From: Coraliomargarita sp.
Lineage (GTDB): Bacteria > Verrucomicrobiota > Verrucomicrobiia > Opitutales > Coraliomargaritaceae
NCBI GenBank assembly: GCA_965216325.1
Contig: OZ244160.1
Location: 1,536,001 to 1,600,000 of the forward strand
DNA length: 64,000 nt
Reading direction: 5' to 3'
Within the stretch, counting starts at the first letter, position 1. Each line of letters starts with the position of its first letter. Below, piece by piece: positions 32,079-32,877 of this stretch. The position numbers are program-made.

Positions 32079-32877
32079 TTATCGCGGTCACTCCGTCGCT
32101 GACGCGAACCACGAAAAATACCGCACCAAGGAAGAGATCGAGGAATACAAGAAGACCAAGGACCCAATTAACGTCCTCAAGGCACAACTTCTCGCCGACG
32201 GCACATTGACCGAAGAGCTGGTTAAGGAGATCAACGCAGAGAAGAAGGCTGAAGCCGATGCATCTGCAAAGTTCGCTGAAGACAGCCCATACGCACCACG
32301 TGAAGAAATCCAGACCGACGTTTACTGGGAAGTCGACAACGACACCGAAGGTAAGCTCAAGGGCACCTACTTCTTCAACGACTAGGATTCAGAAGCCGGA
32401 AGTCAGAGGACAGAAGCCAGCATACAGGAACGGACATGATCATTAAAACTGCAAAGGAATTGACGGTGTATCAAAAGAGTTACGCCCTCGCCATGCAGAT
32501 CTTTGAGATCAGCAAGACCTTCCCCAAAGAAGAAGTTTTTGCGCTCACTAGCCAAATCCGCCGTTCTTCCCGATCTGTGCCCATGAACCTGCGAGAAGCT
32601 TGGGCGAAGCGCCGCTACGAAGCACACTTCGTCAGTAAGCTGACTGACTGCGACGGCGAAACCAACGAAACCGACACATCCATCGACTTCGCACGTGACT
32701 GCGGCTACATCAGAGACGCACAGCACCGCGAACTCGCAGGACTCAATACAGAAATTGGCAGAATGCTGGGTAAGATGATCAACGACCCGACGCCGTTTCT
32801 GATTTCGACACCCGCATAATTTATACAAAACATTCAACCATCTGGCCTCTGACTTCTGTCATCTGGCCTCTGAAACG

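Follow-up and report, generated by a model that had tools for sequence, protein, structure and literature searches.

A probable hairpin cassette of the 23S rRNA intervening-sequence type between the pdhA and pdhB genes of a Coraliomargarita genome

Results

A small gene and two repeat arrays separate pdhA from pdhB

The window analyzed here is a 64,000-nucleotide stretch of the Coraliomargarita sp. genome, and coordinates refer to it unless stated otherwise. On its plus strand, the gene for the E1 alpha protein, pdhA (E1_dh; 31231..32385), is separated from the gene for the E1 beta protein, pdhB (Transket_pyr/Transketolase_C; 32881..33858), by an insert of 495 nt that extends from the pdhA stop to the pdhB start (32386..32880) and that has the same orientation as both host genes. 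The insert consists of a left arm, an open reading frame (ORF), and a right arm, all on the plus strand. The left arm (32388..32420) is a purine-rich heptamer run (CAGAAGC CGGAAGT CAGAGGA CAGAAGC) that is both a direct repeat and one half of an inverted-repeat pair; it begins 2 nt past the pdhA stop and ends 15 nt short of the ORF start. The right arm (32842..32874) is its pyrimidine-rich complement, with its last base 6 nt before the pdhB ATG. Each arm is 33 nt long and is built from 7-nt units, and the two arms are 79% complementary and lie 421 nt apart. Between them, the ORF (32436..32819) encodes a four-helix-bundle, Avd-like protein of 127 amino acids.

The insert is gap-free in metagenome contigs that are ~97% identical to this genome. 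Nearby, the spacer between pdhB and the E2 gene holds a (CTTCTAA) x4.7 array (33864..33896, plus strand), which belongs to a related heptamer family seen on its pyrimidine strand. This array is swapped for another in ~97%-identical strains, and the contig match breaks at 33859. Directly after the E2 stop lies a solo array of the left-arm type (TCAGAGG TCAGAAG TCGGAAG ACAGAGG; 35187..35218, plus strand) with no partner arm.

The encoded protein matches PF05635 (23S_rRNA_IVP, hereafter IVP) over positions 1-105 of 106 with 105.4 bits (cut-off 33.8) and TIGR02436 (four helix bundle protein) with 100.4 bits (cut-off 24). Its only Pfam matches are PF05635 and PF22296, and a Pfam search revealed no transposase domain. 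Proteins 66-85% identical to it come from more than 10 phyla, and 2gsc and 2rld are sequence relatives of solved structure, each with five chains in the entry. In the alignment, residues R43, S47, N51, and E54 form the RxxxSxxxNxxE motif that has been quoted as conserved among Xcc0516 homologues (PMC3936711). Among 16 IVP sequences from the phylum, the Q/R/S/N/E columns are invariant.

We know of no catalytic activity for IVP proteins. A homologous four-helix-bundle fold is found in Avd, a reverse-transcriptase cofactor of diversity-generating retroelements (DGRs), and the PF22296 match reaches 47 bits (cut-off 40). However, the ORF scores 40.1 bits against the NCBIfam equivalog NF033474, for which the cut-off is 80, and its neighbors are pdhA and pdhB rather than a reverse transcriptase, a template repeat, or a variable repeat. 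For these reasons, we rejected the possibility that it is a DGR accessory protein. The genome does carry 13-14 RVT_1 genes, all of them away from the pdh cassette.

The cassette is most likely carried on the pdh transcript

No promoter-like site was found within 31000-35500, and no terminator-like site on the plus strand was found inside or beside the cassette, the first one downstream of pdhA being at 35283..35305. It is therefore most likely that the pdh copy rides on the pdh transcript. An RNA-library contig (32178-32543), a weak piece of evidence, runs from the end of pdhA through the left arm and into the ORF. The RNA spanning 32380-32885 is predicted to fold with -154.2 kcal/mol (z -4.35), and none of 100 shuffled sequences folds as well. 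In the minimum-energy fold, the two arms form an outer stem of ~28 predicted pairs around the whole ORF.

We also considered how closely the arms match each other. Mismatches of the G-U type and of the A-C type number 33 and 52 in IVP brackets, 27 and 28 in PDDEXK_3 brackets, and 12 and 8 in the six brackets of this genome. There is no wobble bias for sense RNA in these mismatches, which argues against selection for RNA pairing as the main constraint. The copy numbers of the two arms are weakly correlated (rho 0.24), and the median rank of an arm's own partner is 11th-12th of 75. Base totals for 25 IVP left arms are G 355, A 334, T 211, and C 115.

All full-length members of two gene families are bracketed in this genome

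A prior survey of the genome had listed six genes, four of the IVP family and two of the PDDEXK_3 family (the NCBI model names are "Four helix bundle protein" and "GxxExxY protein"), and had reported that each is bracketed by inverted repeats. The count holds for full-length genes, here called IVP_a to IVP_d and PDD_a and PDD_b, but the list lacks a fifth IVP entry, a gene fragment on the minus strand (14666..14845) that covers only HMM positions 47-106. A left-arm-type motif lies ~190 nt upstream of this fragment, with no clear partner or bracket. The brackets themselves were recovered for all six genes, compared with ~1% of genes in general. When the gene-wise flank test was redone on 2527 crude ORFs (mean score 7.06, sd 1.84), PDD_a ranked 5, IVP_d 12, IVP_c 13, IVP_a 21, and IVP_b 27, and PDD_b, which falls outside the crude gene list, scored 24 and ranked 10 among the 5949 inverted-repeat pairs (spacing 250-800 nt) of a scan that made no use of gene calls. 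These values bear out the claim that the flank scores are outliers. Pfam-checked neighbors likewise agree with the operon contexts proposed earlier: IVP_d lies between Iso_dh and alaS, PDD_a between an acyltransferase and AIR synthase, and PDD_b, on the opposite strand, between a TPP enzyme and ECH_1, and IVP_a is followed by an ABC1 kinase.

Bracket and motif are inherited with the gene

In new samples from the phylum, brackets were found for 20 of 27 IVP genes (controls, 1/108) and for 21 of 29 PDDEXK_3 genes (controls, 2/113), and so the reported excess over chance in other Verrucomicrobiota was reproduced. Of the 81 genomes examined from the phylum, 57 have IVP matches (as many as 23 in a single genome) and 41 have PDDEXK_3. 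A search with a 3-sequence alignment, which samples only the subfamily of the pdh ORF, yielded 437 relatives in more than 10 phyla; close relatives from this set are bracketed in 65 of 75 cases, as opposed to 3 of 282 controls. The layout is identical in two cyanobacterial plasmid copies, and it is also present in Bacteroidota. Relatives of the pdh ORF were absent from rRNA at all 40 loci examined with an Rfam scan, a sample in which draft genomes often lack rRNA operons, and no phage record contained one at E <= 1e-10. In the present genome, searched apart from 24,000 bases, RF02541 had no match.

The arms of these relatives share a core motif, CRGRR, with a period of 7. At least three copies are present upstream in 75 of 75 relatives, and at least three complementary motifs are present downstream in 67, the other eight having no clear right array. 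Motifs on the wrong strand occur in 6 and 4 of 75 (controls, 7 and 8 of 74), and 50 of 54 cases show the period of 7 on both sides. The left array is always in the sense direction immediately ahead of the start codon, and its complement follows the stop codon. Throughout the phylum, PDDEXK_3 arms carry a CAC(R)GAG core, and their tips are conserved. Arm motifs are specific to the ORF subfamily and are inherited with it, and so they are not simply, as the survey had it, a different sequence for each cassette.

Proteins 70-72% identical to the pdh ORF, with related heptamer arms, are encoded at unrelated sites, namely pfkB/glf in genome G003 and GT4/Wzy in genome G045. Related ORFs at different sites with related arms indicate that ORF and arms travel as a unit, and the two are both inherited and horizontally transferred together. 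Similarity between copies stops at the outer edge of the arrays. The upstream neighbor is co-oriented in 48 of 53 cases, and in 26 of these 48 the left arm begins between -5 and +12 nt from the upstream stop. The upstream host gene, in the same orientation, usually ends within a few bases of the cassette.

Most cassettes occupy old sites

The survey had described the pdhA/pdhB site as empty in other genomes of the family. Among the 28 family genomes that have both genes, 27 indeed lack the cassette, their spacers being ORF-free and 11-120 nt long, but G039, from another genus, is filled: it has the same cassette at the same site with a truncated ORF and a right arm identical at 33 of 33 positions, between flanking genes that are 79-83% identical. 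Many of the cassette-free spacers contain hairpins or other heptamer arrays. The spacer in G007, which is of the same genus, is an unrelated repeat of 104 nt and therefore does not provide a clean excision footprint. Neither a clean empty site nor a target duplication was found at the pdhA/pdhB loci of the family or at leuB/alaS. With an unrelated spacer in G007 and the cassette present in all of the ~97%-identical strains, these comparisons do not show recent movement of the pdh copy.

The leuB/alaS spacer varies among genomes: it may be occupied by an IVP or a PDDEXK_3 cassette, carry a hairpin without an ORF, or be just 39 nt long. The arm type of IVP_c and IVP_d orthologues, and the single site that each occupies, are conserved across 3 and 6 genera, respectively. 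Most cassettes in this family are old and remain at the same sites across genera, and their history is mostly one of vertical descent rather than of recent insertion.

Arm families are dispersed through the genome without the gene

About half of the intergenic tandem arrays of this genome (157 of 323) match the arm families of the six cassettes, compared with 26 of 694 coding arrays and with 0 of 323 when the arms are shuffled. The strongest links are to IVP_c (71 arrays), IVP_b (29), PDD_a (28), and IVP_d (22). Among 53 paired arrays, 39 are compact hairpins with arms at most 100 nt apart. ORF-less copies of the arm families are thus scattered through the genome as compact hairpins. By BLAST, three of the six arm types are abundant dispersed repeats with ~13-54 sites, one type more than had been reported; that of the pdh cassette, with 5-7 sites, is not among the most abundant.

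Genomes that retain the cognate gene tend to have more ORF-less copies. AAGATT-type repeats are most numerous in five of 41 family genomes (122, 99, 73, 50, and 31), all of which have a full-length IVP_c orthologue, although these are related genomes and not independent samples. Genome G036, of the same genus, has neither the orthologue nor the repeats. The link between the CGAAC family and IVP_d is loose: in G040, 121 pattern hits coexist with just a 43% paralogue; hits number 21 in G007 and 17 in G024, neither of which has an orthologue; and G026 has an orthologue with 2 hits.

Discussion

The pdh insert as an intervening sequence outside rRNA

Every independent test that we ran supports the core of the survey's finding, namely that IVP and GxxExxY genes reside in hairpin-bracketed cassettes within operon spacers and that their design resembles that of rRNA intervening sequences (IVSs). 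We consider it reasonably probable that the pdh insert represents an element of the 23S rRNA IVS type outside rRNA, in the form of a self-contained hairpin cassette, and that such genes relate to the dispersed repeats as RAYT genes do to REPINs. Intervening sequences in rRNA have been known since the early 1990s, and they are located inside the 23S rRNA gene at helix 25 or 45, from whose transcript RNase III removes them with no rejoining of the ends. Those of Coxiella and Leptospira, which encode S23p, share with the pdh element the protein family, a size of ~430-490 nt, and terminal inverted repeats that form a long enclosing stem around a sense-oriented ORF. The pdh element differs in its location, an mRNA operon spacer instead of rRNA, and the layout described here is also used by a second, unrelated protein family (PDDEXK_3).

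The paper on the Coxiella IVS (PMC4990558) describes a 28-bp terminal stem, inside which RNase III cuts, and tandem GACAGAT heptamers right before the S23p ATG, which are of the motif type found in the pdh arms. As a point against the IVS-type reading, the same paper reports that Coxiella probably does not produce its S23p and that the gene is in decay. By analogy, the arms of the pdh cassette might pair in the pdh transcript to form an outer stem around the whole ORF, and RNase III would cut this stem as it does in an rRNA IVS. Such cutting would split the passenger from the host message and could make the insertion tolerable.

In REPIN-RAYT systems, a RAYT gene encodes a Y1 (HUH) transposase and each REP is a single palindrome. 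The systems are alike in that a single-copy gene lies between cognate inverted repeats, the repeats are dispersed as intergenic hairpin doublets, and vertical inheritance keeps the gene at one site. However, the pdh ORF, which matches only PF05635 and PF22296, is not a Y1 transposase, and its arms are tandem arrays of 6-8-nt motifs rather than a single palindromic REP. True RAYT-like genes with their own GC-rich REPs are present in this genome as well. MITEs and Correia-type elements are also small, intergenic, and co-transcribed, with terminal inverted repeats and stems that RNase III can cut. The cassettes resemble these in size, location, and terminal inverted repeats, but they contain an intact, conserved non-transposase ORF and motif arrays of variable copy number.

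A possible role for the proteins as partners of dispersed hairpins

We tentatively propose, as a possibility well short of a probability, that IVP and GxxExxY proteins are the trans-acting partners of a class of mobile hairpins, previously unrecognized and pan-bacterial, whose building blocks are tandem 6-8-nt motifs, such that each subfamily reads its own motif and drives or maintains the spread of ORF-less copies. Under the IVS-type reading, too, the encoded protein would recognize the repeated motif; the candidate reader is a pentameric ring in the case of IVP, and in GxxExxY cassettes it is a PD-(D/E)XK nuclease. The TRAP protein reads GAG triplets, and a five-fold ring that reads evenly spaced heptamers would resemble it. 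Because Avd is a reverse-transcriptase cofactor and because the genome contains 13-14 reverse-transcriptase genes, an RNA-mediated copying step is also possible.

This proposal would tie an orphan family, PF05635, to heptamer repeats of bacteria that have long gone unexplained. Descriptions of intergenic heptamer repeats (Xanthomonas GGGAATC, Nostoc GGGGAYT, cyanobacterial heptanucleotides, and Beggiatoaceae TAACTGA) mention a period of 7, an intergenic location just after stops or before starts, frequent convergent pairs, and lengths and sequences that diverge quickly among close relatives. All of these traits are shared by the arrays described here, which differ in being tied to specific genes. 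In Xanthomonas, XCC0516 is the IVP protein of PDB entry 2gsc, and a GGGAATC x4 array lies 6 nt past accB (bccP) and overlaps the annotated XCC0516 start, with 186 such arrays genome-wide. The heptamer-repeat papers give neither an origin nor a function and do not mention S23/IVP genes; the terms 'S23' and 'four helix' occur in neither of the two main texts.

In the literature searched, no function is reported for the IVP or GxxExxY families, and the HEPN-superfamily paper does not mention the IVP family. If these genes are passengers of hairpin cassettes, then their presence inside unrelated operons would reflect hitch-hiking and not function. The 18 IVP genes reported in cas loci, one of them between cmr3 and cmr2, would be an example. 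The rRNA IVS would then be one particular form of an element with a far broader distribution, and the trans-acting reading would explain its origin too. The intergenic heptamer excess (cyanobacterial STRR, Xanthomonas GGGAATC, and others) would gain a concrete, testable origin. Moreover, annotation pipelines could treat arms and ORF as a single feature, and stems inside operons may split or stabilize host messages and could affect gene expression.

Alternative explanations

Perhaps the arms are purely cis-regulatory, the left one being the reiterated, Shine-Dalgarno (SD)-like translation start region of a promiscuous gene and the right one an anti-SD-like complement that masks it or stabilizes the message, with no role in mobility. 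The left arms are indeed purine-rich with GGAG, AGGA, or GAGG cores, end 0-60 nt ahead of the start codon, and have strict polarity; furthermore, the upstream array is universal whereas the downstream one can be absent (8 of 75), and the cassette directly follows a co-oriented stop codon. We nevertheless consider this explanation unlikely. It does not account for dozens of dispersed ORF-less arm copies, often between unrelated genes, and it conflicts with the missing wobble signature. The AAGATT, CGAACRT, and TTAACGT arm families are not SD-like, and the invariant CAG of the heptamer would be unnecessary for an SD. Bacteroidota, where the layout also occurs, make little use of SD sequences.

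The bracket might instead be a target rather than part of the element, if small mobile genes insert into the loops of pre-existing REP-like hairpins of the host, much as IVSs occur at the tips of 23S helices. This explanation fits the compact ORF-less hairpins (39 of 53 paired arrays), the BLAST abundance of three arm types, and the hairpins or arrays in many cassette-free pdhA/pdhB spacers. At leuB/alaS, moreover, the ORF-less hairpin of G009 is of the arm type that brackets the PDDEXK_3 gene in G007, and the outer flanks are similar. It is harder to reconcile with the motif that tracks the ORF subfamily across phyla in every one of the 75 relatives, with related arms at unrelated sites, or with the conserved tips and core of PDDEXK_3 arms. 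Hosts from Cyanobacteriota to Verrucomicrobiota would need to have possessed an identical hairpin family beforehand, and we therefore regard loop targeting as quite unlikely.

A chance origin, in which a gene comes to lie between two independently inserted repeat copies in a repeat-rich genome, is highly improbable. Flank scores are also high for gatC (25), argS (23), ccoG (24.5), argJ (14.5), and purE (13), and three arm types are abundant, but around gatC and argS there are in each case two separate, complete, compact hairpins, an anatomy unlike that of the cassettes. The sparse pdh arm type and the bracketing of all six family genes do not suit this explanation, and the three controlled outside samples together with the universal upstream motif largely refute it. 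It is just as implausible that a site-specific invertase inverts the segment and thereby switches the ORF on and off with respect to the operon promoter: the geometry suits an inverton (20-40-nt inverted repeats around ~420 nt), but in nearly all copies the ORF points the same way relative to the purine-rich arm, with few wrong-strand arrays, the upstream gene is usually co-oriented, the arms are only 79% complementary, and contigs of public runs, as weak evidence, contain no strand-changing joint.

For a neighboring TA island, integron-type capture was considered and set aside, no search aimed at an integrase having been made. Two further bracketed genes were noted in this genome. A 121-aa ORF in a TTAACGT-armed bracket (C1:1069577-1069942) was considered as a third cargo family and set aside, as it belongs to no family and has one outside relative. 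The single DUF559 copy is also bracketed, with a score of 25.5, and its flanks are nested unique inverted repeats rather than motif arrays.

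A bracketed ORF between pdhA and pdhB

The 495 nt between pdhA (31231-32385, forward strand; E1_dh, E 3e-86) and pdhB (32881-33858, forward strand; Transket_pyr and Transketolase_C) hold a single ORF of 127 amino acids on the same strand (32436-32819), flanked by two 33-nt runs of 7-nt units. The left arm (32388-32420) begins 2 nt past the pdhA stop codon and the right arm (32842-32874) ends 6 nt short of the pdhB ATG; the two are 79% complementary and lie 421 nt apart. The ORF scores 105.4 bits against PF05635 (23S_rRNA_IVP, hereafter IVP; cut-off 33.8) and 100.4 bits against TIGR02436 ('four helix bundle protein'; cut-off 24), and at 40.1 bits it does not reach the equivalog cut-off of 80 for DGR Avd. 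Solved structures of its sequence relatives, 2gsc (XCC0516) and 2rld, contain five chains per entry. Downstream of pdhB, the E2 gene (33905-35185, 2-oxoacid_dh) is preceded by a (CTTCTAA) x4.7 array, and an unpaired array of left-arm type follows it directly. A scan of 31000-35500 gave no promoter-like site, the nearest forward-strand terminator-like site downstream is at 35283, and a contig from an RNA library spans 32178-32543. Two long tandem repeats with GC-rich REP-like palindromes (GGGGCGCGACTTGACGCGCCC) also occur, one of 292 nt x5.6 (17950-19570) and one of 149 nt x2.7 (30746-31142), the latter just 5′ of pdhA.

Brackets are a general feature of two gene families

A profile search of the genome, analyzed as one contig of 3,064,510 bases, identified four full IVP genes, one IVP fragment and two PDDEXK_3 (GxxExxY) genes. 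The fragment (HMM positions 47-106; 14666-14845, reverse strand) lies at the end of an island of small toxin-antitoxin (TA)-type gene pairs and was absent from the survey's list. Arms of short tandem sub-repeats surround all six full genes. When 100 nt upstream was aligned with the reverse complement of 100 nt downstream for 2527 crude ORFs (mean 7.06, sd 1.84), five of the six ranked 5, 12, 13, 21 and 27. The sixth, PDD_b, was not among the crude ORFs; when inverted pairs spaced 250-800 nt were sought without reference to genes, it scored 24 and ranked 10 of 5949. The survey's finding that these six genes are bracketed by inverted arms is therefore upheld. The remaining high scorers, which the survey gave as RAYT genes, include RAYT-like Y1_Tnp genes but also one DDE insertion sequence, one DUF559 nuclease and the housekeeping genes gatC, argS, ccoG, argJ and purE. 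We rejected gatC and argS as cargo: each flank carries its own complete, compact AAGATT-family hairpin, and thus the left arm of one hairpin matches the right arm of the other. The DUF559 (Vsr-like endonuclease) gene, the only one in the genome (contig C1, 2125566-2125943), lies inside inverted repeats that are nested and unique (score 25.5), and it may represent a third small-nuclease passenger with another arm style.

The same layout had been proposed for both families across Verrucomicrobiota, and freshly chosen loci bear this out. Among the best loci from each of 27 usable genomes (81 phylum genomes were searched), 20 of 27 IVP genes had a bracket score of at least 12, compared with 1 of 108 displaced controls; for PDDEXK_3 the bracket was present in 21 of 29 versus 2 of 113. 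Arms in this sample comprise 3-6 (up to 14) tandem units of 6-8 nt each, with the purine-rich arm before the start codon and its complement after the stop. PDDEXK_3 arms share a common CAC(R)GAG core phylum-wide, with tips of (TT)AACC(G/A)C type. Thus, the bracket is real and general, and the cassette design is common to a second gene family.

Relatives of the pdh ORF in other phyla

A scan of one genome per species yielded 437 relatives of the pdh ORF. The best 80 of these, at 66-85% protein identity, are placed by the titles of their records in Verrucomicrobiota, Lentisphaerae, Kiritimatiellia, Planctomycetota, Bacteroidota, Ignavibacteriota, Chloroflexota, Acidobacteria, Clostridia, Delta- and Alphaproteobacteria, Binatia, Neomarinimicrobiota and a Nealsonbacteria MAG. 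Among the 75 with enough flank for the bracket test, 65 scored at least 12 (controls, 3 of 282). In all 75, the core C[AG]G[AG][AG] occurs at least three times within 120 nt upstream (mean 6.9, versus 1.0 in the control window), and 67 carry at least three complementary motifs downstream; three or more copies on the wrong strand occur in only 6/75 and 4/75. A period of 7 is seen in both arms of 50/54. No Rfam family was detected at the 40 loci scanned, and therefore none of these lies in rRNA. The upstream neighbor has the same orientation in 48 of 53 cases, and in 26 of those 48 the left arm starts between -5 and +12 nt from that neighbor's stop codon.

More distant relatives (30-57% identity) occur in 24 plasmid records, all catalogued under cyanobacterial genera; the two copies examined have the same arms-ORF layout, and in a Nostoc plasmid GCAGGGG-type arms abut the ATG. 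Phage records gave no match at E <= 1e-10. As a separate observation, two IVP cassettes of 98% identity whose arms are (AAGTAAAA)n, in genomes G089 and G070 (loci L086 and L088), adjoin a Mu-like prophage I protein gene, and such cassettes therefore also ride in prophage regions.

Occupied and empty sites

The survey had described pdhA|pdhB as empty in other family genomes. This holds for 27 of the 28 family genomes whose locus includes both genes: their spacers are ORF-free and 11-120 nt long. The exception is G039, from another genus, which carries the same cassette with its ORF cut short. Between G039 and the studied genome, identity is 79-81% in pdhA, 75.6% in the 5′ part of the ORF and 81-83% in pdhB, whereas the right arm is identical at 33/33 positions. 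This pattern looks like common descent together with constraint on, or homogenization of, the arm. Many ORF-free spacers contain other heptamer arrays or compact hairpins, and G007, of the same genus, has an unrelated 104-nt purine-rich repeat; the site is thus a repeat hotspot without a clean footprint. Contigs from metagenomes, at about 97% identity (74 differences over 2360 nt), are gap-free across pdhA, cassette and pdhB, and the array between pdhB and E2 differs in these strains.

A second site, leuB|alaS, also shows turnover. It holds an IVP cassette in the studied genome and in five further genera. In G007 the spacer is occupied by a PDDEXK_3 cassette whose arms are of CGCAGAT type, in G009 by a hairpin of CACGGAT arms that encloses no ORF and has similar outer flanks, and in G036 it measures 39 nt.

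That ORF and arms form a unit is well supported. Proteins 70-72% identical to the pdh ORF lie at pfkB|glf (G003) and GT4|Wzy (G045) with related heptamer arms. Furthermore, two Tangfeifania copies separated by about 4 kb resemble each other from the inner left array, across the ORF, as far as the right array, but not beyond it. Most of the family's cassettes have long been resident: orthologs of IVP_c (68-83% identity) occupy a single site in three genera with AAGATT-type arms, those of IVP_d (71-91%) occupy leuB|alaS in six genera with CGAAC-type arms, and the PDD_a cassette at plsC|purM is present in G007, G013 and G009, with only pieces of it in G024 and G036. One IVP_d ortholog at a different site (L243, G002:C9:53522-53899; 65% identity) has arms whose polarity is reversed with respect to the ORF; among the cases seen, it alone might stem from inversion between arms.

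RNA stem or motif array

When 32380-32885 is folded as RNA, the arms form the outer stem (-154.2 kcal/mol, z -4.35). On the sense strand, mismatches of G-U type between the arms are not enriched relative to those of A-C type (IVP, 33 vs 52; PDDEXK_3, 27 vs 28; the genome's own six, 12 vs 8). The two arms often have differing unit variants, and their copy numbers are barely correlated. Among the 75 relatives, left arms score a median of 11.5 against other cassettes' right arms (background 7.5); their own right arm scores higher (19.5), yet at the median it is the 11th-12th best of 75. Conservation falls more on the oriented motif array than on perfect pairing, which fits a simple stem no better than it fits a repeated motif that is recognized.

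Relation to rRNA intervening sequences

The survey likened the cassette to ORF-bearing intervening sequences (IVSs) of 23S rRNA, and the likeness is borne out by the Coxiella IVS, which is 428 nt long with a 28-bp, RNase III-cut stem of terminal inverted repeats; 2-3 GACAGAT units and a GACAGAA precede its S23p start (PMC4990558), much as the 7-nt units of the left arm precede the pdh ORF. The authors of that study also quote older proposals of IVSs as mobile elements. Such an element belongs with the ORF-bearing IVSs, yet is found mainly outside rRNA. Its mode of copying, any cutting by RNase III and any reading of its arms by the protein are features that we infer.

Similar arrays have been reported in other contexts. 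Rehm et al. (2015) described 186 GGGAATC arrays of unknown function in Xanthomonas campestris, of which 70 lie in convergent pairs (PMC4692102). Repeat #15 of their list, 6 nt past bccP (XCC0517), overlaps the start annotated for XCC0516, which is the IVP protein seen in 2gsc; the list gives no partner array beside XCC0515. MacGregor (2015) described TAACTGA arrays (PMC4679880). Neither S23 nor four-helix proteins are mentioned in the main texts of these two papers. Zhang et al. (2013) took 18 IVP genes within cas loci as a functional link (PMC3936711). A literature search poor in subscription journals returned no description of bracketed IVP/GxxExxY cassettes outside rRNA.

Cassette arms and dispersed repeats

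Of 1039 short tandem arrays, 329 lie in the ~10.5% of the genome outside crude ORFs. Arm families of the six cassettes match 157 of 323 non-cassette intergenic arrays (IVP_c 71, IVP_b 29, PDD_a 28, IVP_d 22, IVP_a 7), whereas 26 of 694 arrays in coding sequence match, and 0 of 323 do so once the arms are shuffled. An inverted partner occurs within 3 kb of 53 arrays; for 39 of these it is no more than 100 nt away.

Across 41 family genomes, whose interrelatedness means that gene and repeat counts are not independent, AAGATT-type counts of 122, 99, 73, 50 and 31 all occur in genomes with a full-length IVP_c ortholog. A sixth such genome has 15, and those lacking the ortholog have 28 or fewer, mostly 0; G036 (same genus, 76% complete) has neither. 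The link between CGAAC repeats and IVP_d is looser. Genomes with an intact ortholog have 80, 43, 40, 28, 23, 16 and 2 matches, but G040 has 121 with only a 43% paralog, G019 has 53 with IVP_d broken, and G007 and G024 have 21 and 17 with no ortholog.

The genome also carries at least nine RAYT-like Y1_Tnp genes, all with brackets of GC-rich repeats particular to each gene, and 13-14 RVT_1 reverse-transcriptase genes (469-622 aa, several equal in score), which are probably group II intron copies. Two paralogous dTDP-glucose-dehydratase-like genes (1310-2512, 9320-10579) contain arrays of TGAGACT x3.6 plus GTGGGAAG x4 (2058-2121, 10038-10095) that are translated through; hence, arm-type arrays can sit in frame inside a coding gene. 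In the TA island (2870-12830, reverse strand), the gene pairs (PIN-like+DUF433, MNT+HepT, DUF4258, ParE+antitoxin, HEPN+MNT, AbiEii-like) are set apart by a composite junction repeat of 90-240 nt, present in 7-9 direct copies, in which arm-type motifs are strung with a GC-rich REP. Junction copies lie at ~4390-4775, 5625-5861, 6636-6908, 7455-7914, 8983-9365, 10675-10905, 11640-11964 and 14849-15114, a layout that, by analogy, resembles an integron array.
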